Shown: positions 323 through 38,482 of the stretch, one piece after another
Layout of the letters: each line of letters begins with the position of its first letter
Numbering within the stretch: position 1 is the first letter of the stretch
NCBI GenBank assembly: GCA_038246995.1
Contig: JBBRVH010000001.1
Span: forward strand, 4,466-68,465
Length of the DNA stretch: 64,000 nt
From: Sphingomonadales bacterium
Lineage (GTDB): Bacteria; Pseudomonadota; Alphaproteobacteria; Sphingomonadales; Sphingomonadaceae
Reading direction: 5' to 3'
Notes under the pieces: model-generated
The model's database searches: none
The model's input: the letters and a program-made list of their open reading frames with translations, nothing else
What the model was told of the DNA's origin: nothing
Program-made: the position numbers and the translations under genes

Positions 323-326
323 ACGA

Positions 327-1967: not shown

Positions 1968-2254
1968 CAGATGGCTTCCACAGAAAGGCTGCCGCGCGCG
2001 AGGTCGGCACGAACGCTGGGGCCCGAAGCGCGCACGCGCTCGCGGGTGGTGGTGGGGACGAAACTGCCTGGCTCGCCGGTGACATCGATCAGCACCGGAT
2101 CGTTGATGCGCTCGGCGGCGATCAGGCCGGCAACCAACGCCGCGCCTTCATCGCCGATGGGCACGGCATCGGCGATGCGGGTGCTCCAGTCGCTGCCGTT
2201 CCACCAGAGGACATCGCCGGTTTGGAGGCGGTTGCCAGTCAGGATACGGGGCAT
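1967..2254 (-). CDS. DUF2849-like small protein
   Basis: 95-aa ORF that shares 1 nt with the cysI start and overlaps the cobA stop by 16 nt. LTGNRLQTGDVLWWNGSDW resembles the small protein usually found between cobA and cysI in alphaproteobacteria. Confidence 0.6.
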   Translation of the reverse strand: MPRILTGNRLQTGDVLWWNGSDWSTRIADAVPIGDEGAALVAGLIAAERINDPVLIDVTGEPGSFVPTTTRERVRASGPSVRADLARGSLSVEAI

Positions 2255-3024: not shown

Positions 3025-3107
3025 ATAGGCCCCTGCCCCCGTTCAGCGCCAGTGGCCGGCGGGCAAGGCTTTCTTGGCCATGGCGAAGCGAGGTTTGGGG
3101 TAAGCGC

Positions 3108-3144
3108 CGCCGGCGGCTGGGGCCTTGGCCCCAGACCCCGTTTT
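3108..3144 (+). repeat. GC-rich palindromic REP-like element, copy a
   Basis: cgccggcggctggggccttggccccagaccccgtttt. It contains the hairpin ctggggcc-tt-ggccccag and matches the reverse complement of 3950-3987 with 1 mismatch and 1 indel. Confidence 0.7.
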
Positions 3145-3283
3145 AAAAAGCCCTATTGGAATACCGCGCGTGGCGCTCTTGAACCATAGCGTCGGGCACG
3201 TCCGCTCCCGCCCAATCTTAGTCGTTACTCGGGTGCCAAGCATGGACTAAAGGCAGACATCTACCGTGGTGTCAGTTATGTGA

Positions 3284-3826
3284 TTGGGTGTGACACAATT
3301 CCCCTCACATAAATCGCCGCTTGGCATCTCAGATCTGCCCGATCCTGCCAATTTCACTGAATTTTCTCCGTTCATCAAAGGTGTTTTCAGCCAGTGGCAC
3401 CATACGCCATTCAGACTCGAAAACAGGGACTTTGTAACAGCCGAACAATGGATGATGTATAGCAACGCGACACTTTTTGGCGACGCCAATGCTGCTGCCC
3501 AGATTGCCGGCAACAGCGATCCGGCAATCCAGAAGCGACTGGGGCAAGCGGTTCAAGGATTTGACCAAGCTACATGGGATCGCTGGAAAATCGACATCGT
3601 CTACCGCGGCAACATCGCCAAGTTCAGCCGAAATGAGGGAGCGCTTCGGCAACTTAGCAACACTGCTAACGCTCTGCTGGTCGAAGCCAATCCTCGCGAC
3701 TGGATATGGGGAAGCGGTTGCGCCATCGATTATGCAAGCGGGCATGCACCAGCGAACTGGCTTGGACAGAACCTGCTGGGGTTGATCCTCACAAAGGTAA
3801 GGATGGACCTCGCAAATCCGGCATAG
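3284..3826 (+). CDS. NADAR (DUF1768/YbiA-like) family protein
   Basis: 180-aa ORF. FSPFIKGVFSQWHHTPFRLENRDFVTAEQWMMYSNATLFGD and NPRDWIWGSG fit the NADAR/YbiA pattern. Only TTG (3284) or GTG (3290) starts are available. GC clearly below the surroundings. Confidence 0.75.
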   Translation: MGVTQFPSHKSPLGISDLPDPANFTEFSPFIKGVFSQWHHTPFRLENRDFVTAEQWMMYSNATLFGDANAAAQIAGNSDPAIQKRLGQAVQGFDQATWDRWKIDIVYRGNIAKFSRNEGALRQLSNTANALLVEANPRDWIWGSGCAIDYASGHAPANWLGQNLLGLILTKVRMDLANPA

Positions 3827-3949
3827 CCGGCAGTTATCATGCGCTGCCGCCCATGACCGCTTTCTTGGGTCAGGACCCCAAAGCAGATAGCCGCATCACC
3901 ATCAACAGCCGACATTCGACCAAAGGCGCCGACGACGTAATCGATGTTG

Positions 3950-3987
3950 AAACGGGGTCTGGGGCCTTAGGCCCCAGCCGCCGGAGG
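3950..3987 (-). repeat. GC-rich palindromic REP-like element, copy b (inverted relative to copy a)
   Basis: Plus strand aaacggggtctggggccttaggccccagccgccggagg. Its reverse complement aligns to 3108-3144. Confidence 0.7.
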
Positions 3988-4005
3988 CTCTTTTGGAACC
4001 TCCGG
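3950..4005 (-). terminator. candidate rne terminator region (two hairpins)
   Basis: On the minus strand just after the rne stop (4021): ccggagg-N11-cctccgg (3981-4005), then ctggggcc-taa-ggccccag followed by accccgttt. The T-tract is weak. Confidence 0.4.
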
Positions 4006-4020
4006 CGTAAGCGCTCAGGA

Positions 4021-6564
4021 TCAGCCGAAAGTACGCTGCCACCAGCCCTTGCGCGGTGATGCGGCCGCGGTGTCGGCATCGGTGGCGGCCGCCGGCGTCG
4101 GTTCGGCGGCGGGTTCGGCGGCGGCTTCCGTGACCGGTGCTGCGGTTTCGGCGGCCTTGGGCTTGCGCGCACGCTTGGGCTTGACCTCGGCTGCGGGTTC
4201 TTCAACCACGGCCGCCACGGGTTCGGCGGCCTTGGCGGGCTTGGCCGCGGCGGGCTTGGCGGCCTTTGGCGCTGCAGGCTTGGCGACAGGCGCTTCGGCG
4301 ACGGGCTCGACCGCTACCGCTACCACCTTGGGCGCCGCCTTTGACGGGCGCTTGCGGGTGGTCCGTGCCGGCTTGGCTTCGGGCTCGGCGGCAGGTTCGG
4401 GCACAGCGACAGCAACCGGTGCGACATCGGGCACGGCTTCGACATCGGCCTTGCGGCGGCGGCTGCGCTTGGCCGGGGCTTCGGCGACGGCTTCGACCGC
4501 CGGGGGTGCTTCGGCAGCGGCTTCGGCTTCCGACGCAACGGCGGTTTCGGCCTTGTCGCCACTACGCTTGCCGCGACGGCCGCGCCGGCGGCGCTTGCGT
4601 TCACGATCACCGCGAGCTTCGGTTTCGGCCGACGTCTCGCCCGGCTGGGCCGTGGTTTCGGCTTCATCGGCATCGGCAGCATCATCGCCATCGACGGCGG
4701 TGTCTTCGGCGCTTTCGACTGCGGTTTCCGGTGCAGCGTCATCGCCGTTGCGGCCGCCGCGGCGGCGACGGCGCTTGTTGCGGCCGCCACGTTCGTTGCG
4801 GTCGCCGCGCTCACCCTGCGGGCGCTCGTCGCCATCCTCGTCATCGCCGTCGTCGATCACGTCGTCGGGGTCATCCTCGATGCGGACCAGCGCCGGCAGC
4901 GCCTGCATTTCGACCTTCTTCGTCGGCGGCGGGCCGCCGGCATCGATGGCGAAATTCGGGCCGATCAGGGCTTCATCGGGCACGGTGACGATGGTGACAC
5001 CGTAGAGTTCTTCCAGCTCGGCAAGCTCGATACGCTTGCGGTTGAGGATATAGACCGCGACCTCGTCGCCGGCGCGCAGGGTGAATTCCGACGCGCGGCC
5101 ACGCAGCGCTTCGGCTTCGAGCGCGCGCAGGGCCGCCAGAGCGGCGGACGAGACCGAGCGGACCATGCCGGTGCCTTCGCACATCGGGCAGATGTGGGTG
5201 GAGGCTTCCAGGATGCCGGTGCGCAGACGCTGGCGGCTCATTTCCATCAGGCCGAAGGCCGAAATGCGGCCGATCTGGATGCGGGCGCGGTCGTTGCGCA
5301 GCGCGTCCTTCATCGCCTTTTCGACGCGGCGGTTGTTGGCGGAAACTTCCATGTCGATGAAATCGATGACGACCAGCCCGGCCATGTCGCGCAGGCGCAA
5401 CTGGCGGCCGATTTCATCGGCGGCTTCAAGGTTGGTCTTGGTGGCGGTTTCCTCGATGCCATATTCGCGCGTCGAACGGCCGGAGTTGATGTCGATCGAC
5501 ACCAGCGCCTCGGTCGGGTTGATGACGATATAGCCGCCGGATTTGAGCTGGACGACCGGCTGATACATGCCTTCAAGCTGTTGTTCGACGCCAAAACGCT
5601 GGAACAACGGCACATTGTCGGAATATTCGACGACCTTGGGGGTGTGGCCGGGCATCAGCATCGACATGAAGCGCGAGGCATCGGCAAAACCTTCGGCGCC
5701 TTCGACGATGACCTGTTCGATATCGCGGTGATAGATGTCGCGGATGGCGCGCTTGATCAGGTCCGAATCCTGGTGGATCAGCGCCGGCGCCGATGAGGTG
5801 AGGGTGCGCTCGCGGATTTCATCCCACAGCCGGGTCAGATAATCGAAATCGCGGCGAATATCTTCGGACGAACGCTTCAGCCCGGCGGTGCGCACGATGG
5901 CGCCCATGCCCTGCGGCAGCTTGAGATCCGACATGATCGCCTTCAACCGCTTGCGATCGGCGATGTTGGAGATCTTGCGGCTGATGCCACCGCCATGCGC
6001 GGTATTGGGCATGAGCACGCAATAGCGGCCGGCGAGCGACAGATAGGTGGTCAGCGCTGCGCCCTTGGAGCCGCGTTCTTCCTTGACGACCTGGATCAGC
6101 AGCACCTGGCGGCGACGGATGACTTCCTGAATCTTGTAGCGGCGGCGCAGCGACTGGCGCTTGCGGCGCAGCGCGTCGGTCGGCTCGTCATGCTGGCCAC
6201 CGGTTTCGGCAACTTCGCCGACCGGATCGCCGTTTTCATCGAGATCTTCGTCGTGATGATCGTCGTGCTCGGCGGCATATTCGGCTTCTTCGCGGAGCAG
6301 CGCTTCGCGGTCCTCGCGCGGGATCTGGTAATAATCGGGATGGATTTCGCTAAAGGCGAGGAAGCCGTGACGGTTGCCGCCATATTCGACGAACGCCGCC
6401 TGCAGCGACGGTTCGACCCTTGTTACCTTGGCGAGATAGATATTACCCTTGAGCTGCTTCCTGTCGGCAGCTTCAAAGTCGAATTCCTCAATTCGTTGTC
6501 CATTGACCACGGCAACCCGGGTTTCTTCCGGGTGGCGGGCGTCGATCAGCATGCGAAGTGACAT
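4021..6564 (-). CDS. rne: ribonuclease E
   Basis: S1/catalytic N-terminus MLIDARHPEETRVAVVNGQRIEEFDFE...NIYLAKVTRVEPSLQAAFVEYG, Zn-link CPMCEGTG, and a long Arg/Ala/Pro/Lys-rich C-terminal scaffold. Start placed at ATG 6564 (MSLRMLID), not the ORF-track 6657. Confidence 0.95.
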   Translation of the reverse strand: MSLRMLIDARHPEETRVAVVNGQRIEEFDFEAADRKQLKGNIYLAKVTRVEPSLQAAFVEYGGNRHGFLAFSEIHPDYYQIPREDREALLREEAEYAAEHDDHHDEDLDENGDPVGEVAETGGQHDEPTDALRRKRQSLRRRYKIQEVIRRRQVLLIQVVKEERGSKGAALTTYLSLAGRYCVLMPNTAHGGGISRKISNIADRKRLKAIMSDLKLPQGMGAIVRTAGLKRSSEDIRRDFDYLTRLWDEIRERTLTSSAPALIHQDSDLIKRAIRDIYHRDIEQVIVEGAEGFADASRFMSMLMPGHTPKVVEYSDNVPLFQRFGVEQQLEGMYQPVVQLKSGGYIVINPTEALVSIDINSGRSTREYGIEETATKTNLEAADEIGRQLRLRDMAGLVVIDFIDMEVSANNRRVEKAMKDALRNDRARIQIGRISAFGLMEMSRQRLRTGILEASTHICPMCEGTGMVRSVSSAALAALRALEAEALRGRASEFTLRAGDEVAVYILNRKRIELAELEELYGVTIVTVPDEALIGPNFAIDAGGPPPTKKVEMQALPALVRIEDDPDDVIDDGDDEDGDERPQGERGDRNERGGRNKRRRRRGGRNGDDAAPETAVESAEDTAVDGDDAADADEAETTAQPGETSAETEARGDRERKRRRRGRRGKRSGDKAETAVASEAEAAAEAPPAVEAVAEAPAKRSRRRKADVEAVPDVAPVAVAVPEPAAEPEAKPARTTRKRPSKAAPKVVAVAVEPVAEAPVAKPAAPKAAKPAAAKPAKAAEPVAAVVEEPAAEVKPKRARKPKAAETAAPVTEAAAEPAAEPTPAAATDADTAAASPRKGWWQRTFG

Positions 6565-6971
6565 TATGGGGCTCCATGGCGCCGCGGCCGCCCCTTGCGG
6601 GGCACCGGCGGCGCATATTTCTGGCGTCGGCGCGGCGCTGTGCGGCCACGCTGACAATATGTTGCGGGATATGTGCGGTCAGGCCCGAATGATCCGCAGT
6701 CGCCGCCCATGGCTTGCCGGCCCGAAGGGCGGCCGCGCTTGAACGAAATGGCGAAACGATCATCCGACCCCTAAAATACGCCCGGCCTCGACCCCGGCCG
6801 GGTTGCGTGCCTCGCGGCGAGCTTCGGCGAACGCCACCCTTGCGGGCGACAGGACGAAACTGCCGGAAACAACAGCGGCCAAGCCACTGTTCAGCATAGT
6901 CGTAGCACGTGGATGCGGGGGGCGGCAAGGGCAGGTATCCGATGGGGAGCGTGCGCTGCCGGACACGCATG
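6565..6971 (-). promoter_or_regulatory. long rne promoter/5-prime leader region
   Basis: About 400 nt without a credible ORF between the rpsD terminator and the rne start. It contains GC hairpins, e.g. cccggcc..ggccggg near 6781-6805. Confidence 0.35.
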
Positions 6972-6999
6972 AAAAAGCCCGGGCAAAACCCGGGCTTTT
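6972..6999 (-). terminator. rho-independent terminator downstream of rpsD (bidirectional shape)
   Basis: aaaaa-GCCCGGG-caaaa-CCCGGGC-tttt. Stem 6977-6983 / 6989-6995, flanked by A and T runs, 54 nt after the rpsD stop. Confidence 0.7.
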
Positions 7000-7052
7000 C
7001 CAGAACCGGTACCGCCGGGGAACACCCCCGACGCCACACCGATCGCCGAGAC

Positions 7053-7664
7053 TCAGCGCGAATAGAATTCGACCACCAGGTTCGGCTCCATCTTCACCGG
7101 ATAGGGCACTTCATCAAGGGTCGGGACGCGGACATAGGTCGCCTTGGGCCCTTCGACCGCGACATATTCCGGCACTTCACGCTCGGTCAGGCCCTGCGCT
7201 TCCATGACCAGCGCCATTTCCTTCGCCTTGCTGCCGAGTTCGACGACATCGCCCGGCTTTACCTTGGCCGAGGCAATGTTGCAGCGGCGGCCGTTGACGA
7301 TGATGTGGCCATGATTGACGATCTGGCGGGCGGCAAAGATCGTCGGCGCGAACTTGGCGCGATAGACGACCATGTCGAGGCGCTGTTCGAGCAGGCCGAT
7401 GAGGTTCTGCGAGGTATCGCCCTTCATCTGCACGGCGGCCTGATAGGTGGCGCGGAACTGCTTTTCGGTGACATCGCCGTAATAGCCCTTGAGCTTCTGC
7501 TTGGCCTTCAGCTGGATGCCGAAATCCGACACCTTGCTCTTGCGGCGCTGGCCGTGCTGGCCCGGGCCATATTCGCGCTTGTTGACCGGCGACTTGGGGC
7601 GGCCCCAGATGTTTTCGCCCATGCGGCGATCGAGCTTGTACTTGCTGTTATGACGCTTCGACAT
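7053..7664 (-). CDS. rpsD: 30S ribosomal protein S4
   Basis: [49 protein letters not shown]... Start moved to ATG 7664. Confidence 0.95.
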
Positions 7665-7914
7665 ATGATTCGCTTTCGTGATTGCTGAAGCTGGCGCGCC
7701 TTGCCGGCACACCTGCCCTTGAAACCCCGGCCTCGCACCGACCGGCCAGAACCTTGCGGCATGCCGGGCGCGGCCACTGCTTCACCGGGGGTGCAGGGCC
7801 AGTTGCGAAGCGGCGGCGGTTAGACGAAGCCGGCACCACGGTCAAGTGCAGCTTGACTTTCCGGCACGTTCCCGCCACACGCCGCGCTTCCAGAAAATCG
7901 GAAAGTACGCCCCC

Positions 7915-8256
7915 ATGGCACGCGTTACCGTTGAAGATTGCGTCGACAAGATCCCCAACCGTTTCGACCTGGTGCTGTTCGCGGCGACCCGCGCGCGCGC
8001 CATTTCATCGGGTGCCGAAATCACCGTTGATCGCGATCGCGACAAAAACCCGGTCGTGGCGCTGCGCGAGATCGCCGACGAGAATATCAAGCCGGTCGAT
8101 CTGCAGGAAGCGCTGATCGCCTCGATGCGCCGCGTCGTCGAAAGCGAAGACGATACCCCCGATGCGATCGGGTCGTTGTCGGCATCTGCCGAAGCCTTGC
8201 GGATCACGGCGGCGCAACCGCCGCGCAACCAGAACCTCGGGCCCGACTACGAATAA
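7915..8256 (+). CDS. rpoZ: DNA-directed RNA polymerase subunit omega
   Basis: [33 protein letters not shown]. Start at ATG 7915. Confidence 0.95.
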
Positions 8257-8413
8257 AAGGCCGCGCGCGCCGGTACGGCACGGCGGTCTGGTTGGGGACG
8301 GTCTGTAGCCGGGCCGTCGCGTCGCAAAGGCTGATCGCGACAACGCAGGTGGGTGCGCTGGCCCGGACGGCGTATCAAGTGCTTTGGACAAAGCGCCGCG
8401 GGAATGCCGGCGG

Positions 8414-10186
8414 TCAGGGGCGTTGCAGTTCCTGTGCCACTGAACCTTCAGGGTTTGCGACAGGCTCGACGCGCCAGACGCGGCGCCCCGCATAGTAGCG
8501 GATCAGGGCAGCGTTTTTATCATCGCCGAGATCATGCGCCCAGATGATCGGCTGATGGTCGATATCGGCGCCGTTGAAAACCCATTGGACACCCCCCTTG
8601 GCGCCACTGACGGGCCGAACGAAAACAAGATCATCGCCGCTTGCTGCCGCAAGCGCCCGTTCGACCGGCAATCGTCCATAGGGGACCGCGAGATAGCAGC
8701 ACGGAGTCATGAAGGTCGGCGCCAGCCGCGGCCAGCCGGTGACGAGGCTTGCCAGCGGCACGATGCAGGTCGCGACAATCGCCAGGGGTAGCGCACGCGA
8801 CAGGAACAGGCCCCACGGCCCCCAGCGCGCATGGCGCAGGGCGCCCAGCCCGGCGACGCTTATCAGCACCAGCAGGCCGACCGCCGGCGTGAGATAATGC
8901 GGCCAACTGAAGGTGATGAAACAGAAACCGACGACGGTGACCGCGAAGGAAGCCGCCAGGACAGGACGGGATCGCAGCCAGAACAGGCCGAAAATCATCG
9001 GAATCGTCAGCAGCGGGCCGAAATAGAACGACCAGATATTGCGCAATTTGCCCGCTGTCGCCCTCAGGGCATGCACGGGTGTCGAATAATCGCCGGCGGG
9101 ACGGCTCTCTGCCTGGTAAAAGGCGTCAAGACCCGGCGGCACCGCACGCTTCGGCACGCTTGCTGTTTGCGTGACGAAAGCGGGCATCCTTGCATAGTCG
9201 GTACGATTGAGCTCGTACGGTGTTTCATAGGCCGAACCGGTATTCGCCTGGTTATACGCCAGCAACAGCGCCCCCGAAGCACCAACCGCAGCAATCATCG
9301 GCACCATGAGCCGGAGCGCCGAGGGCCATTGCCTGTCGGCGAGCAGTCGAACTAGGCGATACAGCAGCACCGGCACCAGTGGCAGACACAGCAGCAGGCC
9401 TTCATACGGCCGTGTCAGCATGAGCAGCGCGACGCCCAGCGCCAGCGCCAGCGCTGCGCCCGTATCTATCCGCACGAGCAGCCGCGGCAACGCGCCGATA
9501 ACCAATATGCCCCCCAGAACCGTGGATGCCAGCCCATATGGCATGTTCATGAAGGGTGAAAACAGACCGAACCGGACCACGAAAAGCAGCCCGCCGACAA
9601 AGGCGATATTGGCGCCGAGCCAGCCGCGCAACATCCAGACGATGGCGGCCCCCGCCGCTGCCACCACCAACATGACGCCGACACCCGGTTCGCCGGCGAG
9701 GCCGAGACCAAGGGCGAGTTCGAGGCCGCGACCCGGAAAGTACATGCTGCCATAGGCGGGCGCCTGGTGGACATAGACGCTTTCGAAAAAGGCGGCAAAA
9801 GGGTGGGGTGGATTGGCCAGCCGGCCGAGCAGGAAAGTTTCGGCCTGCAATCGCAGGCTGGATTCATCACGGCCGATCGTGATCGGCCAGGGCAACCCTG
9901 CCAAAAGGCACAGACGACAGATGATCACCGTCGTCGCCACGAACAGCGGCGCACCGACCGGATGGCTTGCGATCTGCGCCAGACGGCGTTCGCATCCGAC
10001 GAAAAACCGGCTCGCCGCCTGCGGCCGGATCGCGCAGGTGATCAACATTATGGCGAAAAGCGCTATTTCGACGGTCTGCCTGACATAAGGTTCGACTTGC
10101 TGGATCAAGCTCACGGTCACCTCTGACGTGTAACGGCAGCGCATGGCGGCACGCCCGGAAAATTGTCTTAAAGAATCCTGCAACAA
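8414..10186 (-). CDS. large polytopic membrane protein, probable GT-C-fold (ArnT/PMT-like) glycosyltransferase
   Basis: About 570-590 aa with many hydrophobic helices. A DE pair sits in the first predicted external loop (ITIGRDESSLRLQAETFLLGRL). Soluble C-terminal domain of about 110 aa. Start uncertain: TTG 10186, ATG 10144, or GTG 10120/10114, where the 10114 GTG follows GAGG. Confidence 0.55.
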   Translation of the reverse strand: MLQDSLRQFSGRAAMRCRYTSEVTVSLIQQVEPYVRQTVEIALFAIMLITCAIRPQAASRFFVGCERRLAQIASHPVGAPLFVATTVIICRLCLLAGLPWPITIGRDESSLRLQAETFLLGRLANPPHPFAAFFESVYVHQAPAYGSMYFPGRGLELALGLGLAGEPGVGVMLVVAAAGAAIVWMLRGWLGANIAFVGGLLFVVRFGLFSPFMNMPYGLASTVLGGILVIGALPRLLVRIDTGAALALALGVALLMLTRPYEGLLLCLPLVPVLLYRLVRLLADRQWPSALRLMVPMIAAVGASGALLLAYNQANTGSAYETPYELNRTDYARMPAFVTQTASVPKRAVPPGLDAFYQAESRPAGDYSTPVHALRATAGKLRNIWSFYFGPLLTIPMIFGLFWLRSRPVLAASFAVTVVGFCFITFSWPHYLTPAVGLLVLISVAGLGALRHARWGPWGLFLSRALPLAIVATCIVPLASLVTGWPRLAPTFMTPCCYLAVPYGRLPVERALAAASGDDLVFVRPVSGAKGGVQWVFNGADIDHQPIIWAHDLGDDKNAALIRYYAGRRVWRVEPVANPEGSVAQELQRP

Positions 10187-10298
10187 CTACAAGAAATCGA
10201 TTCCCGTCAAATCAAAATTACCAAACAAAAGATTTAACCTGGGACAAATCCAAGGGCAGCGCCGATTGTCGGGGTGCGTGCAATACTATTGAAGGTCG

Positions 10299-10679
10299 TC
10301 AACGAAAAACGATGGTCTTGTTCAAGGTAAAGTTGAAGACAAAGGCAATGGCGATGGCCGCCGTCTTGGCCAGGATCGGCGATCCGAGCAGGTAGCTGCT
10401 GAAAAAAACGGTCAAGGACACGTTGAGCAAAAACCCCAGGCTGGCCGCAGCGAGGAACAGCAGATAGCCCCGCCGCGTCCGGTCCTGCTTGAAGACATAG
10501 CGCGATGACAGCAGGTAATTCACCAGCGCTGCCACAAGGAAACTGATCATGGCGGCAATGACGACCGACAAGCCGGCGCGCAACCCCAGGGCAAAGCCGC
10601 CGATATCGAAAATCGCGGCAATGCCGCCGGTCACCAGATAGCGGCTGGCCTGGACGGCCGTTTCGCGCCATTTCGTCAT
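10299..10679 (-). CDS. GtrA-family membrane protein
   Basis: 126 aa with 4 hydrophobic segments. RYLVTGGIAAIFDIGGFAL...NYLLSSRYVF...FNFTLNKTIVFR is the GtrA pattern. Its ATG overlaps the HAD stop (ATGA at 10676-10679). Confidence 0.85.
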   Translation of the reverse strand: MTKWRETAVQASRYLVTGGIAAIFDIGGFALGLRAGLSVVIAAMISFLVAALVNYLLSSRYVFKQDRTRRGYLLFLAAASLGFLLNVSLTVFFSSYLLGSPILAKTAAIAIAFVFNFTLNKTIVFR

Positions 10680-11353
10680 GCGGTATGCAGGGGGGCGAAT
10701 AACGGATCGTTGAAATCCGCAAAACTCTGGTAGCCCGCAACGGGCCTGGACGACCGGATCAGCGCCCTGACGCCCGCCTGGCGCGCCGCCTCGCCATCTC
10801 GTTCGGCACGATCACCTATCATGACCGTGGTCGCCGGCGTCGCCCCGGCGCGAGCAATCACCTCCAGAAGCCCGGTCGGGTCGGGCTTCATGATGCCGAC
10901 ATCGGCCGCCGACACCACGAAATCGGCGCCAAGGCCCATGGCATCGAGCTTGGCCTGCGCCGGATAGTCCGACAAGGCGGCCACCTGCCGGCCACTGCGA
11001 CGGATGCCGGCAAACAGCCCGGCAGCGCCGGCGATGACATGCGGTTTCAGATGTGGCAGCGGCCGTGTCTCGATCCATTCGGCGACCGTTGCCGCCACCG
11101 TTGCCGCCGATGTTCGCGTCTGTTCGGCAACATGGGCAATCAGCTTGCTTTCGAAATCCCGAACCCGATCATCGGCAAGGACTTCGCGGTGGCTGCGGTA
11201 GAGCGAGAGAATCCGGAACGTCTGCAACGACCGCGTGCCGATAACATCGGCGACGAGCATGCGCAGCATGGCGAGCCGCAGCCCCCGCTGGCGATACAGG
11301 GTTCCGTCGACGTCGAAAACGACCAGCCGGACGCCCTGCCAATCAAAAGCCAT
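10676..11353 (-). CDS. HAD-superfamily phosphatase/hydrolase
   Basis: Motif I VVFDVDGTLY and motif IV GDRAERDGEAA. Start moved to ATG 11353 (MAFDWQG), which overlaps the ubiA-like stop by 11 nt. Confidence 0.85.
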   Translation of the reverse strand: MAFDWQGVRLVVFDVDGTLYRQRGLRLAMLRMLVADVIGTRSLQTFRILSLYRSHREVLADDRVRDFESKLIAHVAEQTRTSAATVAATVAEWIETRPLPHLKPHVIAGAAGLFAGIRRSGRQVAALSDYPAQAKLDAMGLGADFVVSAADVGIMKPDPTGLLEVIARAGATPATTVMIGDRAERDGEAARQAGVRALIRSSRPVAGYQSFADFNDPLFAPLHTA

Positions 11354-12341
11354 AGCGCGGGTCGAGCGAGATGAAGCTTTGCGCCGACAGCGCCACCAGC
11401 CACGGCATGTCGACAAAGGTGCACAGCGCCAGCAAGGCCACCAGCAGCGCGCTGACGGCAATCAGCCGCTTTTCGGCGAAAATCTTTTCCGGCTTCTGGG
11501 CAACCGAACCAGCCTGCATCGAAAGCGTCATGTACTGCGCGAAAAGCGCCGCGAACGCCGGGAAGGTCAGGATATATTCGATGCGATACTTGATCAGAAA
11601 TACCGCGAGGAAAAAGGCGCTGAGCATTGCATAGACCATGCAGGCGACGGTCAGGCTGGTTTCAGTATAACCCGAAAAGCTGGCGCGATAGCGGCTGAGC
11701 AGTTCGCGGCCATGGCTGGCGGTGATCTCGCGATATTCCGACAGGCGCTTGGCCGTCATCAGGAAGCCACCCCCGGTCCAATAGGCCAGCAGGATCGACG
11801 ATGGCGGCAGCGTGTGCGGATCGATCATCGCCCAGCCGATCATCATGCGCAGCGGATTGTTGATCGCCTCGCTGACCACATCGAAATAAGGCACTTCCTT
11901 CGATCGCATCGGGCGGACATTGTAGACAATGCCCTGGGCGGCAAACACCACGGCGACCCAGAACATCGCCATGTTCGCCATGGCGGCGCTGCCCAGGCCG
12001 ATCACCACGAAGACCAGCCACTGGAGCCCGACAAGCCGGGAATCCAGCGTCACCTGGACCGCCGTGCGCGCCGACTTGGTGGGGTGAAACTTGTCGAATT
12101 CGCGATCGAGGAATTCGTTGATCGTATAGTTTGCCGATGCAATCGCCACGGCGCAGATCAGGCCCAGGATGATCGACAGGACCGGATTGGGGGCCGCGAT
12201 GCCGCGCAACATATAGGCCAGCACCATGCCCGGCACGATGAAGACATGTTTGGTCGCATGGTCGAACCGGGCAATGGTCAGATAGTCGCCAAGGCCAGCC
12301 GACCGGACGGGCGCCAGCTTCACGCCATCAGTTCCAGACAT
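11343..12341 (-). CDS. UbiA-family polyprenyl-phosphate transferase, possibly a phosphoribosyltransferase type
   Basis: 332 aa, polytopic. First Asp-rich motif NYTINEFLDREFDKFHPTK, second region YNVRPMRSKEVPYFDVVSEAINN. Strong SD (GGAGGA) before ATG 12341. Confidence 0.8.
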   Translation of the reverse strand: MSGTDGVKLAPVRSAGLGDYLTIARFDHATKHVFIVPGMVLAYMLRGIAAPNPVLSIILGLICAVAIASANYTINEFLDREFDKFHPTKSARTAVQVTLDSRLVGLQWLVFVVIGLGSAAMANMAMFWVAVVFAAQGIVYNVRPMRSKEVPYFDVVSEAINNPLRMMIGWAMIDPHTLPPSSILLAYWTGGGFLMTAKRLSEYREITASHGRELLSRYRASFSGYTETSLTVACMVYAMLSAFFLAVFLIKYRIEYILTFPAFAALFAQYMTLSMQAGSVAQKPEKIFAEKRLIAVSALLVALLALCTFVDMPWLVALSAQSFISLDPRYGF

Positions 12342-12627
12342 AAAATCCTCCGTGCTTCAAACAGCCCATAAGCAGTTCAACTTCAACTGCAAGTTCAAGT
12401 TCCGACATGACCGGCAGATACGCGAACCCGTTACGAACGCCAGCACCCCCGGATAGAGGCGAACAAAAAGTTGGCGGCAACCCGGCACGGGACGCCGCCA
12501 ACCACTGACCGTCAGAATTCTGTAATATATTGAAATACGTTGACAGATTTCTCCGATACCCAGAATTTTTACCTCATGCTGTGGTGCAGCACAAGCCGGG
12601 AATGGCGCTGCAACGCCCGGATTGCGG

Positions 12628-14127
12628 TCAGCGGCGAGGGTCCGTTGCAGCGCCTGCAGCAAGCCGCCGCCCCCGCACGATCTCGGCGATAAGGACAAGC
12701 GCTGCCAGCGGGATCAACCATATCACCCTCGCCTGGAAGCGCGGGTCAGGCGATGCCAGCGCCCCGCAGACGACAGCGTTCACCACGACCCCGGTGAACA
12801 GCAACACGCAGAACCAGGTGAGCCCGGGGGTGGCCTGCAACCGCTGGCGGCCGCCGGCGAGCGCGGCGCCCAGCACTGCCAGGCTGCCGAGCACGGCGAT
12901 CAGGTTGAACCGGCTCATCAGGTCGAGAAAGTCATCCCCCTGCGCGATCCGCGACGCGCGGATCCCGGCCCAGACGTCGGGAGGGAAAGAGGTAGAAAAA
13001 TTGGCGCGGGCCTTTGGCGTGACCTTCATGTTGTCGAGAGAGAATCGCTGCAATTGCAGCACCACGTCGCGCGCCGCACCGCCGATGACCTGCAACGGCT
13101 CGTGCCGGAACACGGCCAGCGCAAAAGCGACCTGTTCATCCGAAAGAGCCCGCCTGGTTTCACGATCGGCGAGTTCGAAAATGCCCTTGTCCGGATCGAC
13201 GCTGAACATGAAATCCACCCAGCCGACCGGCAACCGCGCCTTGTACTTGCAGACGGCAAAGCCGGCTTGCGGACAATAGGCGTCGATATAGTCCATACCC
13301 GGCCCCATCTCCACGAGATGCGCGGTGATATGGGGGAGCATCATCGGTTTTTCGCCCGTGAGGCGTGTCGTGGCAAGATTGAAGGCCAGCATCAGTGCCG
13401 ACGCAGAGGCAAAGATCGCCACGAGAAACGCCAGTTCGCGCCACTTGCGCTGCGCCCTGGCCATGAAAAACTGCGCGATGACACCCAGCCCGATCGCCAT
13501 CCCGGTGATCAGCAGGTGGCTCGGATGGACGGCGGCGGCAAAGACACAGGCGCCGAACAGGAAAAGCCGGTCTCCCGGCTGCAGTTTTCTCCAGTAAACC
13601 AGCACCAGCGCCGTCACCAGAATGATGACCGGTGCAAAGATGTCGGGCATGATATAGGCGATTGTCGGGCCGACGCTGGTGAAGGCGGACAACAGCGCCA
13701 TGACGATGACATAGGGCGCGACACCGGCCTGGTTCACACCGCGGACGAATACCAGGGCAATCAAGGTGGCCACCACATAGGCCTGAACCGCAACGACGAG
13801 CCAGAAATCCGAATAGAGATAGCCGACCGCAGCCAATATCCCGTAATAGATCGAGCGATTGCCGGTCACGGGGTTGGCAACGACCTTGTCCTTGCGGTCG
13901 CCCGTGGGCATCGCCACGACCTTGCCGGCGATCAGCGCCTTGGCTTGCCGCGGTTGCCAGCGTTCGACACCTTCCTCGACCCCGAGGACTTTCTGCAGGA
14001 CAATCGAGCCGCCGCGAACATAGGAACGGCTGTCGCTGAACAGGACCGCATAGCCATTCACCAGCCCGAAGCTGCACAGCATGAACGCGCCGATGAGGCC
14101 AAGCCAATAGGGCTTGAATTTTGTCAT
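12628..14127 (-). CDS. polytopic membrane protein of unknown function (possible second lipid-linked-sugar glycosyltransferase)
   Basis: About 500 aa from ATG 14127 (MTKFKPYWLGLIGAF...). Roughly 10 or more hydrophobic helices with a soluble stretch (residues about 330-440). I recognise no family motif. Confidence 0.5.
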   Translation of the reverse strand: MTKFKPYWLGLIGAFMLCSFGLVNGYAVLFSDSRSYVRGGSIVLQKVLGVEEGVERWQPRQAKALIAGKVVAMPTGDRKDKVVANPVTGNRSIYYGILAAVGYLYSDFWLVVAVQAYVVATLIALVFVRGVNQAGVAPYVIVMALLSAFTSVGPTIAYIMPDIFAPVIILVTALVLVYWRKLQPGDRLFLFGACVFAAAVHPSHLLITGMAIGLGVIAQFFMARAQRKWRELAFLVAIFASASALMLAFNLATTRLTGEKPMMLPHITAHLVEMGPGMDYIDAYCPQAGFAVCKYKARLPVGWVDFMFSVDPDKGIFELADRETRRALSDEQVAFALAVFRHEPLQVIGGAARDVVLQLQRFSLDNMKVTPKARANFSTSFPPDVWAGIRASRIAQGDDFLDLMSRFNLIAVLGSLAVLGAALAGGRQRLQATPGLTWFCVLLFTGVVVNAVVCGALASPDPRFQARVIWLIPLAALVLIAEIVRGRRLAAGAATDPRR

Positions 14128-14400
14128 CAAAAACCGACTTCTTCCCGTTTTGCTGACGAACCACAACGCGTGCAAGGCTGATGCCAAGCACAAAAAATGC
14201 CGGAATTCCAGTCTTTTTTCCAGATATGCACAGCGTGCTTCGCACATGCGAAATGAAAGGCCAAGTGCTTTTTGCCCGAAAGCGCGCCGGCCTTTGGCAC
14301 GGCGATGGCGCTGGGCGAAAGCGCCGCGCCGCCCGATTCCGACACGCCCGTCGCAGCGTTAACGGTTGCGCCACGGCGACGCCCACCCCAGTATCGGGAC

Positions 14401-16503
14401 ATGCTGCGCCAGTATGAACTTGTCGAACGCGTCAAGGCCTATGATCCCGATGCGGACGAGGACCTGCTGAACCGCGCCTATGTGTTTTCGATGAAGGCGC
14501 ATGGCAGCCAGTTGCGCGCCTCGGGTGACCCCTATTTCAGCCACCCGATCGAAGTCGCGGGCATCCTGACCGACCTGAAACTGGATGACGAGACCATCGC
14601 CACCGGCATCCTGCACGATACCATCGAGGATACGGTCGCGACGCAGGAACAGATCGATCGTCTGTTCGGCACCAGCGTCGGCCGGCTGGTCGATGGCGTC
14701 ACCAAATTGTCGAAGATCGAGGCGCAGACCGACAGCGAGCGCCAGGCCGAGAATTTGCGCAAGTTCCTGCTCGCCATGTCGACCGACATCCGCGTGTTGC
14801 TCGTCAAGCTGGCGGACCGGCTGCACAACATGCGCACGCTGCATTTCATCAAGTCCGAGGAAAAGCGCCGTCGCATCGCCCGCGAGACGATGGATATCTA
14901 TGCGCCGCTTGCCGAACGCATCGGCATGTATGGCTTCATGGACGAATTGCAGGAACTCGCCTTTCGCCAGCTCGAACCCGAAGCGCATGCCACGATCACC
15001 GCCCGGCTCGACAAGCTGCGCGATCATGGCGGCGACACGGTGGCGCGCATCGCCTCGGGCATCAAGCTGCTGCTCGGGCAAAAGGGCATCGATGCCGAGG
15101 TGACCGGCCGCGAAAAACGCCCCTATTCGATCTGGCGCAAGATGCAGGGCCGCCAGGCGACCTTTGAATCGCTGTCCGATGTCATGGCCTTCCGGGTGCT
15201 CGTCGATGATGAGGCCGAATGCTATCGCGCGCTCGGCGTCGTCCATGGCCGCTGGCCAATGGTGTTCGGCCGTTTCAAGGATTTCATCTCGACGCCCAAG
15301 CGCAACGGCTACAAATCGATCCATACCACCGTGCTGCATTCCGAAAACACCCGCATCGAAGTGCAGATCCGCACCCGGCGCATGCACGAGGAAGCCGAAT
15401 TCGGCCTCGCCGCGCACTGGGCCTACAAGCAGGGCGGCGATGGCGCTCCGGCACGCGAGGCCTATCCCTGGCTCGAGGATCTGCTCGAAGTGCTGCGCGA
15501 TGCCGCGTCGCCCGAAGAACTGCTCGAAAACGCCCGGCTGGCGATGTTCCAGGACCAGGTGTTCGTCTTCACGCCCAAGGGCACCTTGTTCCAGTTGCCC
15601 AAGGATTCGACCCCCGTCGATTTCGCCTATGCCGTCCACTCCGATCTGGGCGATCGCTGCGTCGGTGCCAAGGTCAATGGCCGCGTCGTGCCGCTGCGCA
15701 CCCGGCTGGTGAATGGCGACCAGGTCGAGATATTGCGCGCCAAGGCCAAGGCGCCCGATCCGGCGTGGGAAGGCTTTGTCGCCAGTGCCAAGGCGCGTGC
15801 CGCGATCCGCCGCCATGTCCGCCAGAAAAACCTGCTCGAAAGCCAGGCGATGGGCAGCAAATTACTCGAATCGCTGGCGCTGCGCCTCAAGATCGCGCTC
15901 GGCGACGATCTGCTCGGCCCGGCGCTGGGGCGGCTGAAACTGCCGGATCGCGCCGCGCTGGAACTCGCCATGGCGCGCAACGCGCTGACCGATGCCCAGG
16001 TTTCGGAAAGCCTGGTGCCGGGCTCGACCGCGGGGCAGAAGCCCCGGCGCGGGCGCGGCAAGCCCGGGCCGGCGGCGGTCAGCATCCATGGCCTGACGCC
16101 GGGCGTGGCCTTCGAACTCGGCGCCTGCCGGCCGATCCCGGGGGATCGCATCGTCGGTATCCGCCACCCCGGCCAGCCAATCCAGGTCCACACCATCGAT
16201 TGCGCCAGCCTGGCCGAGGAAACCGGCGAATGGCTGGAAGTATCCTGGGGCAAGGAAACCGATGGCGCCGTCGCGCGGCTGGCCGTGGTGGTGCACAACC
16301 AGCCGGGCTCGCTCGCCTCGCTGGCGACGACGCTGGCGGCGCACAACGCCAATATCGTCAATCTGGCCCTGAAACACCGCGACCGCGAGTTCCACACCGA
16401 TGTCATCGACATCGAGGTCGAGGATCTGGCGCATCTGACCACAATCATCGCGGCGCTGCGCCAGGTGAAGGCGGTGGTGTCGGCGGAACGGCTGCGCGGG
16501 TGA
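14401..16503 (+). CDS. spoT: bifunctional (p)ppGpp synthetase/hydrolase (RelA/SpoT homolog)
   Basis: HD-domain region [24 protein letters not shown], synthetase core YKSIHTTV, and the TGS and ACT-like C-terminus. Start placed at ATG 14401 ([11 protein letters not shown]). Confidence 0.95.
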
Positions 16504-16546
16504 GTCGCGCTCGCAAGGCGCGCGCGATGCTGCTAGGCGGTCTGCC

Positions 16547-17128
16547 ATGACCGACGAACAGATCCTTGCCGAATTCCGCGCAGCGCAAGCCCTGCTGGAG
16601 GGGCATTTCATCCTGTCCTCCGGCCTGCGCTCGCCGCGCTACCTGCAATGCGCCCGGGTGCTGATGGACCCGGCGCGGGCGGCTCGGCTGGCGGAAGCGC
16701 TGGCGGCGAAAATTCCGGAGGATGTGAAGGCACAGATCGATGTGGTGATCGCCCCGGCGATGGGCGGACTCATCTGCGGGCATGAACTGGCGCGCGCGAT
16801 GGGCAAATTGTCGATGTTCGTCGAACGCCCGTCCGGCAGCTTCGAACTGCGCCGCGGTTTCCGGCTCGAACCCGGGCAAAAGGTGCTGCTGATGGAAGAT
16901 GTCGTGACCACCGGCCTTTCTTCACGTGAAGCCATTGCGGCCGTGAACGCTGCCGGCGGCACCGTCATCCACGCCGCCTCGCTCGTCGACCGCTCGAACG
17001 GCACCGCTGATCTCGGCGTGCCCTTCACCCCGCTGATCCGCCTCGACGTGCCAAGCTATGCCGCCGATGCACTGCCGCCCGAACTTGCCGCCATCCCGGC
17101 GATCAAGCCCGGCAGCCGGGCGGCATGA
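16547..17128 (+). CDS. pyrE: orotate phosphoribosyltransferase
   Basis: [17 protein letters not shown] and the PRPP loop [13 protein letters not shown]. Confidence 0.9.
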
Positions 17129-17868
17129 CTGCCCCGATCCACAAGCTGCGGCTGGGCGTCAATATCGATCACGTCGCCACCATCCGCAATGCGCGCGGCG
17201 GGCTGCACCCCGATCCGGTGCGCGCCGCGCTGATGGCGGCCGAAGCCGGTGCCGATGGCATCACCGCGCATCTGCGCGAGGACCGGCGCCATATCACCGA
17301 TGCCGATCTCGATGCGCTGGTCGGCAGCATCAGCCTGCCGCTGAACCTTGAAATGGCCGCCACCGACGAAATGCTCGGCATTGCCTTGAAGCATCGTCCG
17401 CACGCCGCCTGCATCGTTCCCGAACGCCGTGCCGAACGCACCACCGAAGGCGGGCTCGATGCCGCCGGCCAGCATAATGTGCTGGCGCCGATCGTGGCGC
17501 GATTGCAGGACGCCGGCATCCGGGTCAGCCTGTTCATCGCGCCCGAAGCGCGGCAACTCGAAGCCGCGGCTCGGCTCGGCGCGCCGGTGGTGGAATTGCA
17601 CACCGGGCCGTACAGCCATGCCGTGACCGACGCCGGGATTGCCGCCGAAATGGCGCGGCTGGTGCGTGCCGCCGAAATCGGGGCGACGCTCGGGCTCGAA
17701 ATGCACGCGGGGCATGGGCTGACCTTCGACAATGTCGGCCCGGTGGCGGCGCTGCCGCAACTGCACGAGCTCAACATCGGGCATTTCCTCATCGGCGAGG
17801 CGGTGTTTACCGGGCTCGGGCCGGCGATCGCGCGGATGCGCGCGGCGATGGACGCGGCACGCGCATGA
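17125..17868 (+). CDS. pdxJ: pyridoxine 5-phosphate synthase
   Basis: [16 protein letters not shown]...[16 protein letters not shown] overlap with pyrE. Confidence 0.95.
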
Positions 17869-17882
17869 GCAACCCTTTTTTC

Positions 17883-17985
17883 TCCCCTCCCGGCACGGGA
17901 GGGGCCGGGGGTGGGAAGAATCGTGCCGCAATGCCGTCCTTTCGGCGCAGAGAACCCACCCCCGACCCCTCCCGTTCCGGGAGGG
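17883..17985. repeat. composite palindromic intergenic element (two CCCCTCCCG/CGGGAGGGG hairpins flanking a 10-bp long-range stem)
   Basis: Hairpin 17883-17903, long stem cgggggtggg 17905-17914 with cccacccccg 17954-17963, hairpin 17965-17985. Confidence 0.65.
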
Positions 17986-17995
17986 GAGAAGCAAG

Positions 17996-18418
17996 ATGAA
18001 CATACCTCCCGGCGTCTTCGTCCTCGGGCTCGGGTCCGACTTGTGCAACATCGATCGCATCGACAACAGCATCACTCGCTTCGGTGATCGCTTCATCAAC
18101 CGCGTCTTCACCGACACGGAACGCGCCAAGGCCGATCGCCGCAAGCTGACGCGCGTCGCCACCTATGCCAAGCGCTTTGCCGCCAAGGAAGCCTGTTCCA
18201 AGGCGCTCGGCACCGGCTTTCGGCAGGGCGTGTTCATGAAGGACATGGGGGTCGTCAACCTGCCCTCCGGCGCGCCCACCCTGGCGCTGACCGGCGGCGC
18301 TGCGGCAAGGCTGGCGCAAATCACCCCGCCGGGGTACAGGGCTGACGTTCATTTGACGATGACCGACGACCACCCCTGGGCGCAGGCCATCGTCCTTATC
18401 ACCGCGAGTGCGTTATGA
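17996..18418 (+). CDS. acpS: holo-[acyl-carrier-protein] synthase
   Basis: [12 protein letters not shown]...[14 protein letters not shown]. Start at ATG 17996. Confidence 0.9.
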
Positions 18419-19245
18419 CCGAGGCTGCATTGCCGGCAACCAAGAAGCCGACCAACTGGGCCAGCGAGATCTGGCAGTTGTTCCTGCTCGTTCTCGCCGT
18501 GCTCGGCGTCCATTCCTTCATTGCCAAGCCATTCTATATCCCGTCGGGGTCGATGTTGCCGTCGCTGCTGATCGGTGACCGGCTGATCGTGTCGAAATTC
18601 CCCTATGGCTATTCCTATCTGTCGCCGTCGCTGAACGTGCTGCCCGAAATGCCGGGGCGCTTGTTCGGCCGACTGCCCGATCGCGGTGACATCGCCGTCA
18701 TCAAGAGCCCGCGCGACAAGACCGATTACATCAAGCGCGTCATCGGCCTGCCGGGTGATACGGTGCAGATGAAGGATGGCCAGCTCTGGCTCAACGGCGT
18801 GGCCGTGCCCAAGGTGGCGGTGGCCGATACAGTCATCCCGGTCAGCGCCAACAGCGATTGCGTGACTCCGATCGACGCGCAATATCGCACCACCAATGCC
18901 GCCGGCCAGCCCGAATGCCGCTTCCCCACCCATCGCGAGACGCTGCCGGGCGGGCGCACTTACCTGACCATGGACCTCGGCCAGACGCCGCAGGACAATA
19001 CCGAGCCGATGCTCGTTCCCGAAGGCACCATCTTCCTGATGGGCGACAACCGCGACAACAGCGAAGACAGCCGTTTCGATCCGGTCATCGGCGGGCTTGG
19101 CATGCTGCCGCTCGAAAATCTTGCCGGCCGCGCCGAATTCATCACCTTCTCGCTCGACGGCTCGACCGATTGGAACCCGGTGACCTGGTTCACCGCGGTC
19201 CGCAGCGGCCGCTATTTCATCAACCTCGATACCAAGCCCGAATAG
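18415..19245 (+). CDS. lepB: signal peptidase I
   Basis: [18 protein letters not shown] (Ser box), [22 protein letters not shown]. Confidence 0.9.
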
Positions 19246-36233: not shown

Positions 36234-36293
36234 CGTTGGGGCTTTCCTGTGGCCGGGGGCAGGCCGGAGAAGAAGGGAAGGGTGTTCGGCAGG

Positions 36294-36620: not shown

Positions 36621-36631
36621 CGGATTGTTCC

Positions 36632-36907: not shown

Positions 36908-36929
36908 CGAAAATCTCCCTTGAGCCGCG

Positions 36930-37223: not shown

Positions 37224-37247
37224 TGTTCACATCCTTGTCGGGCGATT

Positions 37248-37532: not shown

Positions 37533-37559
37533 CGTCTCTCTCCCCCTCGCAGCCAGCGC

Positions 37560-37940: not shown

Positions 37941-37965
37941 GGCGTGTGTCCCTGTTACGACGAGA

Positions 37966-38166: not shown

Positions 38167-38193
38167 CGGTCTATCCCTTGCGTTGGCTGAAAT

Positions 38194-38478: not shown

Positions 38479-38482
38479 CGTC

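Follow-up and report, generated by a model that had tools for sequence, protein, structure and literature searches.

Kelly et al. (2024) described three-component systems for extracytoplasmic transfer of pentofuranoses, which consist of a polyprenyl-phosphate 5-phosphoribosyltransferase (PPPRS, fused in the prototype to a HAD phosphoribose phosphatase, PRP), a flippase, and a GT-C-class glycosyltransferase that founded family GT136. Optional epimerases decide whether the sugar is ribofuranose (Ribf), xylofuranose (Xylf) or arabinofuranose (Araf), and a system without an epimerase gives Ribf (PMC11127046). In the prototype, from Citrobacter youngae O1/O2, the components are ORF15 (PPPRS-PRP), ORF14 (flippase) and ORF12 (GT-C, GT136); split phosphatases, SMR-type flippases, multiple GT-Cs and GT-Cs annotated as hypothetical have already been recorded (Supplementary Information Fig. 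S12 in PMC11127046). The DNA discussed here is a stretch of 64,000 nucleotides from a Sphingomonadales bacterium (GenBank assembly GCA_038246995.1, contig JBBRVH010000001.1, positions 4,466 to 68,465 of the forward strand; hereafter the window). Between rpoZ and spoT it carries a cassette of ~5.9 kb with five genes, for a UbiA-family protein, a HAD phosphatase, a GtrA-family protein and two large polytopic proteins, here called A and B. The cassette is best read, by analogy, as a variant of the systems of Kelly et al. (2024).

In the scheme we favor, the UbiA protein would act as a PPPRS, and the HAD protein, translationally coupled to it, would strip the 5'-phosphate to leave polyprenyl-phospho-ribofuranose. 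GtrA would carry this donor to the periplasmic leaflet, where B, the conserved GT-C-class partner, and A, an accessory GT-C, would each pass the pentose to an envelope acceptor. Periplasmic glycosylation from some lipid-linked donor appears very likely, and lipid-linked pentose glycosylation, the model as a whole, rather probable; that the sugar is specifically Ribf is evenly poised. The five genes are as follows:

12628-14127, minus strand: gene B, a polytopic protein of 499 aa with no match in Pfam or NCBIfam
11343-12341, minus strand: the UbiA gene (PF01040, 61 bits)
10676-11353, minus strand: the HAD gene (PF00702, 70 bits)
10299-10679, minus strand: the GtrA gene (PF04138, GtrA_DPMS_TM, 76.4 bits against a cut-off of 26.1)
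8414-10144, minus strand: gene A, 576 aa from the ATG; the open reading frame (ORF) reaches a TTG at 10186

A preliminary description of this DNA had placed five minus-strand genes between rpoZ and spoT, both on the plus strand, and the ORF coordinates agree. The motifs that it quoted, NEFLDREFDKFHPTK in UbiA and DVDGT and GDRAERD in HAD, are present in the translations, and its overlaps of 11 nt between the UbiA stop and the HAD start (11343-11353) and of 4 nt between the HAD stop and the GtrA start (10676-10679) are exact. The five ORFs are real genes rather than chance reading frames, since homologues of each are numerous and their order is repeated in independent genomes.

The logic of the cluster agrees with that of the C. 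youngae system at every point: each encodes a UbiA-superfamily protein (in the window a probable relative of decaprenyl-phosphoryl-phosphoribose (DPPR) synthases), a GT-C, a phosphatase of the HAD type and a small membrane protein as flippase, a role that is proposed in the window. The two differ in the lineage of every part and in setting. The UbiA clade of the window lies far from ORF15 and the PRK08238 family (44 against 351 bits with model NF006088), HAD is a separate gene that is not specifically like the fused phosphatase domain, the flippase is GtrA whereas ORF14 is a MATE protein, and the GT-Cs come from families outside Pfam and NCBIfam. The cassette stands alone between housekeeping genes or on plasmids, and not in an O-antigen or capsule locus.

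The mycobacterial decaprenyl-phospho-arabinose pathway is similar in other respects. Its DPPR synthase (DPPRS), Rv3806c, is the closest solved structure to UbiA, with the HPTK and KRxxE motifs kept, and the pathway likewise has a GtrA-family protein (Rv3789) and GT-C transferases (Emb/Aft), among which AftA is the best match of A. Identity between UbiA and Rv3806c is low, however, and UbiA scores under the equivalog cut-offs. The phosphatase is of the HAD type in the window and of the PAP2 type (Rv3807c) in mycobacteria. The window cluster lacks DprE1/E2 and so probably uses ribose, whereas mycobacteria use arabinose, and in a Gram-negative sphingomonad host the lipid is presumably undecaprenyl phosphate. 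Type IV pilin arabinosylation in Pseudomonas aeruginosa PA7, with a PPPRS, DprE1/E2 homologues and the GT-C TfpW (PMC11127046), also pairs a DPPRS homologue with a GT-C for a lipid-linked pentofuranose in a Gram-negative bacterium. It differs in that the genes form part of a pilin locus that includes epimerases and glycosylates a protein; the window cassette has neither pilin nor epimerase genes beside it.

Gtr-type O-antigen glucosylation systems of Salmonella and Shigella phages (GtrA, the GT2 enzyme GtrB, and a serotype-specific GT-C, Gtr*) resemble the cassette as compact mobile units that combine GtrA as flippase with a GT-C acting in the periplasm. No GtrB-type GT2 is encoded in 8414-14127, where UbiA and HAD stand as the candidate donor synthase; this replacement implies a pentose derived from phosphoribosyl pyrophosphate (PRPP) rather than a sugar derived from a UDP-hexose.

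Two plasmid clusters come from the same bacterial class as the window, on p.A of Cereibacter sphaeroides (L096, 5371-12054) and on IRBL74_p of Agrobacterium pusense (L097, 5698-10538). Each encodes a HAD-UbiA fusion (PRK08238), GtrA, a hypothetical membrane protein, a flavin adenine dinucleotide (FAD) oxidoreductase, a short-chain dehydrogenase/reductase (SDR) and a second hypothetical membrane protein. They are plasmid-borne and, like the window cassette, combine a UbiA-type synthase with GtrA and hypothetical polytopic proteins, but their DprE1/E2-like genes make them probably of the arabinose type. Their fusions are bona fide PRK08238 members (391-634 bits, Cereibacter 634), whereas the window UbiA profile scores them at 20-24 bits, and the A and B family hidden Markov models (HMMs) do not match their membrane proteins. 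These low scores and non-matches mark the window system as a separate lineage.

New here are the lineage (the UbiA clade, HAD and both GT-C families) and the stand-alone mobile form; the pathway logic is already known, and since it was published in 2024 the present case does not overturn current understanding. The lipid-linked pentose interpretation of the preliminary description is largely supported, but it is less novel than was assumed there (PMC11127046). Literature searches turned up no publication on the lineages of UbiA, A and B seen here. Should the reading hold, it would assign a function to three large families that lack annotation: the UbiA clade, whose members are mislabelled '4-hydroxybenzoate polyprenyltransferase', B (>5,000 clusters at 50% identity) and A. 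Gram-negative bacteria would then have, in the UbiA clade, a second lineage of polyprenyl-phosphoribose synthases, and CAZy would gain A and B as candidates for new GT-C families. As the cassette is compact and mobile on chromosomes and plasmids, it could serve as a module for surface-glycan diversification or seroconversion in Alphaproteobacteria, plant symbionts included. Tractable systems are at hand in pRL10 of Rhizobium johnstonii 3841 (RL_RS28975-28965) and p9146 of Paracoccus aestuarii.

The UbiA-HAD pair and its candidate donor

Several comparisons suggest that UbiA is probably a PPPRS-like enzyme, with the mycobacterial DPPR synthase Rv3806c as its nearest characterised relative. Its best NCBIfam model is the DPPR synthase NF008977 (62.3 bits), 18 bits above PRK08238 and 28 above the next unrelated model; models for quinone, haem O, chlorophyll and MqnP prenyltransferases give 16-34 bits, 34 being the best score of any model unconnected with DPPR synthesis. 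A single-sequence search of the PDB returns one structure only, 8j8j (Rv3806c), whose NDVRDVEADREHPTK aligns to NEFLDREFDKFHPTK of UbiA. By both results the protein does not group with aromatic prenyltransferases. The HPTK following the first Asp-rich motif, given in the preliminary description as characteristic of the DPPR-synthase subfamily, is real: Rv3806c reads DREHPTK, and its K87 binds the PRPP pyrophosphate. A PRK08238 enzyme has HPRK at this position.

The ligand contacts of Rv3806c were taken from its structural description (PMC10994848), its sequence was checked against the PDB chain, and the positions were mapped onto the 32-member UbiA family with MAFFT/HMMER alignments, in which identity to Rv3806c is low. 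Eleven of the 13 positions compared, comprising 10 ligand contacts and the motif residue D81, are invariant in the family. The correspondence, Rv3806c residue first, is:

Motif residue D81 to D83, invariant: the last Asp of the first Asp-rich motif, for which no ligand contact is shown (PMC10994848)
Mg2+ contacts, invariant: N73 to N75, D77 to D79
Pyrophosphate contacts, invariant: R22 to R25, K87 to K89, R90 to R92, K143 to K148, and Y138 to Y140
5'-phosphate contacts, invariant: K28 to K31, Y70 to Y72
Lipid-phosphate contact, invariant: K191 to K198
Ribose O3 contact, lost: Q135 to G137, with the adjacent Q136 invariant
5'-phosphate contact of moderate role, lost: Y157 to N162

Two loop residues of Rv3806c, R192 and E195, correspond to R199 and E202, which are also invariant. 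Aromatic and isoprenoid UbiA prenyltransferases (UbiA, MenA, haem O synthase, chlorophyll synthase and DGGGPS) carry a second Asp-rich motif of the DxxxD type in the loop after transmembrane helix 6. At the site of this motif UbiA reads A-K-R-L-S-E and Rv3806c G-K-R-Y-A-E, with KRxxE in both. The phosphoribose-binding residues of Rv3806c are not conserved in other UbiA enzymes (PMC10994848).

Other results weigh against a plain assignment to the known synthases. UbiA scores far below the curated DPPR-synthase cut-offs (62.3 against 234 bits for NF008977, 30.5 against 207 for NF008978, and 20.8 against 474 for NF008976) and below that of the HAD-UbiA fusion model PRK08238 (NF006088, 43.7 against 351), and it resembles a bona fide PRK08238 enzyme, the fusion of Cereibacter p.A, over 75 residues only (BLASTP, E 2e-5). 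When the PDB is searched with the 32-member profile, AfUbiA (4tq3, partial), an archaeal prenyltransferase with no assigned function, reaches E 6e-7 and Rv3806c E 2e-6, a tie that makes sequence ranking alone not decisive. The losses at Q135 and Y157 count in the same direction. The HAD protein, for its part, does not specifically resemble the HAD domain within the Cereibacter p.A fusion (E 0.45). The UbiA clade is, by these scores, separate from the curated DPPRS and PRK08238 families, and is predicted from its residues to work in the manner of a PPPRS. Its members share 57-85% identity with the window protein across Sphingomonadales, Acetobacter, Rhizobium plasmids and Paracoccus, and are publicly annotated as '4-hydroxybenzoate polyprenyltransferase' or 'UbiA family prenyltransferase'.

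Of the 8 other loci that we compared, 7 have the HAD gene directly after that of UbiA; in the remaining one (L086) gene A separates the two. The product is a HAD-IA phosphatase and, judging from its sequence and position, probably the 5'-phosphatase that acts on the UbiA product. Since a phosphatase is required only where that product bears an extra phosphate, the pairing counts for a UbiA product of the phosphoribose type.

The same logic could operate with another chemistry. The UbiA clade would then make a donor other than polyprenyl-phospho-ribofuranose, from another pyrophosphate-activated phosphosugar or polyol phosphate, or on a different lipid, with HAD trimming it, GtrA flipping it and B and A transferring it. 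We regard this as unlikely, although it accommodates the depth of the separation from DPPRS and PRK08238 enzymes, all of whose cut-offs are missed, the failure of Q135 and Y157 to be kept in register, the tie with AfUbiA and the lack of relation between HAD and known phosphoribose phosphatase domains. The identity maintained within the clade across orders would likewise suggest a distinct fixed specificity. Against it, the counterparts of K28, Y70, R22, K87, R90, K143 and K191 are all invariant, DPPR synthase remains the best model, and no donor other than PRPP is known in this branch of the superfamily (PMC10994848, PMC11127046).

A broader variant would have UbiA and HAD form a third, deeply separated clade, making an undescribed lipid-linked donor or taking an unrecognised route to polyprenyl-phospho-ribofuranose, with two founding GT-C families delivering the sugar to a conserved envelope acceptor other than O-antigen, for example a glycosphingolipid in sphingomonads that have no lipopolysaccharide (LPS). 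Such an arrangement would explain how a cassette of four genes can work on a 9-kb plasmid or between housekeeping genes; we hold it to be rather improbable.

The membrane proteins GtrA, A and B

In the scheme involving a PPPRS-like UbiA, the donor would be moved and used by the three membrane proteins. GtrA comes after HAD in 6 of the 8 other loci; it is missing in Acetobacter and truncated in L092. From its family membership this small membrane protein is proposed to be the flippase for the lipid-linked sugar. In L092 (2170-2244) about the first 25 codons of gtrA are detectable after HAD, either a truncated gene or a faulty assembly.

Neither A nor B matches anything in Pfam, NCBIfam or the PDB sequences, and Pfam searches with 43 members of the A family and 41 of the B family gave nothing meaningful. 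Their folds were predicted with AlphaFold2 and compared with the PDB by Foldseek. For A, the model (43-sequence alignment) has a predicted local distance difference test (pLDDT) of 91.2 and a predicted template modelling score (pTM) of 0.92. Its top match is the arabinofuranosyltransferase AftA (8if8, E 2e-5), followed by ArnT, AglB, ALG9/12, AftD, EmbA/B/C, PglB and STT3, all at probability 1.00, and transporters appear only at a template modelling score (TM-score) of ~0.1. The protein has a small C-terminal alpha/beta domain, and D92, nearly invariant, and E93, in the consensus, lie in an RDES/DEFS stretch after the second hydrophobic helix. The earlier suggestion of a GT-C-like fold is strongly supported for A by this confident model, which makes it a predicted GT-C-fold glycosyltransferase. 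A is part of the module in L086 (B-UbiA-A-HAD-GtrA) and L093 and is absent from it in Polymorphobacter, Sphingomonas nostoxanthinifaciens, Acetobacter and Paracoccus p9146; the copies without A point to it as an accessory second transferase. More distant homologues of A have GT2, epimerase and methyltransferase genes as neighbours.

B is probably a GT-C-class periplasmic glycosyltransferase and the conserved partner of UbiA-HAD-GtrA, and here gene context carries the case more than the modelled fold does. The model is as good as that of A (41-sequence alignment, pLDDT 91.6, pTM 0.91), and the leading Foldseek matches are PglB (probability 0.99, E 0.035), STT3 (0.97) and ArnT (0.96), GT-Cs being the only structures with a non-trivial TM-score and transporter and MATE/Wzx structures standing at ~0.1. 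Invariant residues are D32, directly after the first transmembrane helix, R91, Y95, P161-D162, H201 and C285/C293. D32, like D92 of A, is a candidate for the acidic catalytic residue that GT-Cs conserve in their first extracytoplasmic loop. The claim of a GT-C-like fold made for B in the preliminary description is thus borne out weakly by structure (E 0.035 or worse) and backed by context.

The context is extensive. In a profile search the B family comprises 5698 representative clusters at E<=1e-3, all hits being full-length family members with no bridge to a named family. In 6 other loci a B homologue directly precedes UbiA, and in Acetobacter one lies next to it in divergent orientation. Distant homologues occur as B-GT2-GtrA (L091), as a GT2 gene followed by a B-GtrA fusion (L090) and in a polysaccharide locus of Ruegeria (L089); there are three independent B-GtrA fusions, with GtrA at either terminus. 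These distant homologues occupy the position of the serotype-specific GT-C in Gtr-type systems. A Foldseek search of B against BFVD, aimed at phage Gtr* enzymes, gave no useful match.

B might alternatively be some other polytopic component, for example an enzyme akin to a polymerase or ligase, a protein that handles the acceptor, or an alternative flippase, with A alone transferring the sugar. The weakness of the GT-C matches speaks for this (probability 0.82-0.99, E 0.035-0.7, TM-score 0.3-0.4, with no better match among viral or PDB structures), as do the lack of a Pfam family and a profile-profile comparison that relates A to B with a probability of only 39%. We nevertheless judge it quite improbable. 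Most copies of the module lack A, but B keeps its place next to UbiA in 7 of the 8 other loci, so in the copies without A the transfer step must come from B; the family's place in Gtr-type systems, the invariant Asp right after the first transmembrane helix and the poor fit to transporter and MATE/Wzx structures also speak against it.

Recurrence of the module and identity of the sugar

The B-UbiA-HAD-GtrA order is found at unrelated chromosomal sites across genomes, among them Polymorphobacter multimanifer and Sphingomonas nostoxanthinifaciens, with neighbours that differ in each genome. In Acetobacter fallax the module is without GtrA and B lies divergently beside UbiA, and a UbiA 85% identical to that of the window occurs in yet another context (L092). 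The smallest setting is p9146 of Paracoccus aestuarii (NZ_CP067174.1), a plasmid of 9,146 bp whose sole cargo is B-UbiA-HAD-GtrA, alongside a MobV relaxase and a BrnT/BrnA toxin-antitoxin pair; HAD crosses the start of the record and is thus missing from the listed annotation. Members of the UbiA family (51-59% identity) are also carried by 18 Rhizobium plasmids and by Sphingobium and Rhodobacter replicons. A search of phage genomes with UbiA (tblastn) gave no match. The cassette is compact, self-contained, and mobile on chromosomes and plasmids.

In R. johnstonii 3841, plasmid pRL10 was confirmed to carry UbiA-HAD-GtrA (RL_RS28975-RL_RS28965), with no homologue of B or A within 8 kb; in this system a transferase must be encoded elsewhere or be absent. 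The three pRL10 genes lie amid toxin-antitoxin genes and adjoin a gene for a cadherin-domain protein.

From such gene order, residues and folds we infer the enzyme activities of the cassette and the identity of its sugar. The five-gene block encodes no DprE1/E2-type oxidoreductase, as the preliminary description had observed, and no SDR epimerase, and the lack of an epimerase in the cluster makes Ribf the most likely sugar. The donor could instead be Araf or Xylf, if an epimerase encoded elsewhere in the genome converted the lipid-linked ribose. Canonical alphaproteobacterial systems do have DprE1/DprE2-like genes adjoining UbiA-GtrA, the best structural match of A is an arabinofuranosyltransferase, and donor promiscuity of GT-Cs between Ribf and Xylf is documented (PMC11127046); an epimerase may, moreover, be encoded elsewhere in the genome, which weighs against a firm assignment to Ribf. 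In published systems, however, the epimerase is clustered with the other genes (PMC11127046). Here the module of the window and those of 7 of the 8 other loci neither contain nor adjoin a gene for an FAD oxidoreductase or SDR; the eighth, in Acetobacter fallax, has an SDR-type epimerase ~6 kb away, and the 9.1-kb plasmid carries no other cargo. One FAD oxidase of the window was examined (30222-31628); it is GlcD-like and located 16 kb from the cluster. We give an Araf or Xylf donor little credence.

That UbiA is an ordinary aromatic or isoprenoid prenyltransferase (of the quinone, haem O or ether-lipid type) with functionally unrelated neighbours, as the public annotation names and the generic UbiA assignment by Pfam would have it, is scarcely credible in view of the model scores (16-34 against 62 bits), the replacement of the second Asp-rich motif by KRxxE as in Rv3806c, the translational coupling, and an order with HAD, GtrA and B that is kept across orders and on a minimal plasmid.

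Insertion between rpoZ and spoT, and probable transcription units

The flanks of the cassette and the remaining features of the region are:

7915-8256, plus strand: rpoZ, left flank (RNA_pol_Rpb6; TIGR00690, 59.7 bits), convergent with gene A
14401-16503, plus strand: spoT, right flank (HD_4, RelA_SpoT, TGS and ACT; TIGR00691, 637 bits), divergent from gene B
12462-12503, minus strand: probable intrinsic terminator 3' of gene B, a hairpin with a U-tract
10145-10298, minus strand: AT-rich stretch separating gtrA from gene A, which may hold an internal promoter

Alignments of SpoT relatives begin at residue 44 of the long spoT ORF. That the five genes are an insertion had been suggested from their location and orientation, and comparison of the rpoZ-spoT interval in relatives upholds this. 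Among alphaproteobacterial loci probed with SpoT, rpoZ lies at most 1 kb upstream of spoT in 50 of 70 (median gap 306 bp), and genes for A, B, UbiA, HAD or GtrA lie upstream of spoT in none of the 70. A Sandarakinorhabdus genome (L003, Sphingosinicellaceae) is collinear with the window over 1-8234 and 14401-19197 (~19 kb), except for the block: its rpoZ-spoT gap measures 291 bp against 6167 bp in the window, which gives an inserted block of ~5.9 kb. Collinearity was read at the level of coding sequence, the intergenic DNA of the relatives being too diverged to align. The insertion is found at this position too in a metagenomic contig whose RpoZ is 100% identical, with identities of 92% for B, 98% for UbiA, 93% for HAD, 93% for GtrA and 89% for A. 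On this comparison the block is a real insertion and appears to have been acquired horizontally.

The five genes have a GC content of 0.58-0.65 and a GC content at third codon positions (GC3) of 0.73-0.80, slightly below the flanks and near-native. A recent foreign origin is rejected on these values, and the insertion is old or came from a compositionally similar donor. There is no tRNA gene in the window and no integrase among the genes flanking the block.

The only similarity between the two flanks is a marginal near-repeat of 21-23 nt (8265-8285 and 14282-14304, GCGCGCCGG..GGCACGGCG), whose local alignment score 6 of 300 shuffles attained; in DNA rich in GC it could have arisen by chance, or it could be left over from the original intergenic sequence. 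A second Sandarakinorhabdus genome (L022, 8115-10000) has 1.9 kb between rpoZ and spoT, with two ORFs (345 and 227 aa) that match nothing in Pfam. The interval between rpoZ and spoT may have received insertions repeatedly in this family. In a metagenome-assembled genome (L001, 1-9800) whose SpoT is 91% identical, no rpoZ occurs within 9.8 kb upstream of spoT; that region has genes for an RlmN-like radical SAM protein, AAA/VWA proteins, an alpha/beta hydrolase and a subtilase and no DNA matching the window, synteny ending exactly at the spoT start.

Within the cassette, transcription units are probably B alone, ubiA-HAD-gtrA as a coupled unit, and then A. The division follows from the hairpin and U-tract 3' of B. 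Folding of 12450-12515 on the minus strand gives a free energy of -30.3 kcal/mol (z -3.85), a stability equalled by 0 of 200 shuffles. The stem is formed by GGUUGGCGGCG...UGCCGCCAAC, followed by UUUUUGUU, ~130 nt 3' of the gene B stop, and its long loop is the reason that a consensus terminator scan overlooked it. Counts from the promoter and terminator consensus scan were not above shuffled expectation, and an Rfam scan of 7700-14600 gave no match. The AT-rich spacers from which internal promoters had been proposed are indeed low in GC (0.446 at 10187-10298, 0.459 at 10142-10298 and 0.528 at 12342-12627, against 0.65 for the window), but a promoter in 10145-10298 finds no consensus sigma-70 match on that strand.

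Elsewhere in the window, at 35955-39229 on the minus strand, about eight small ORFs (91-137 aa, with one of 248 aa) adjoin a sigma-54 activator gene (39598-40662, plus strand).

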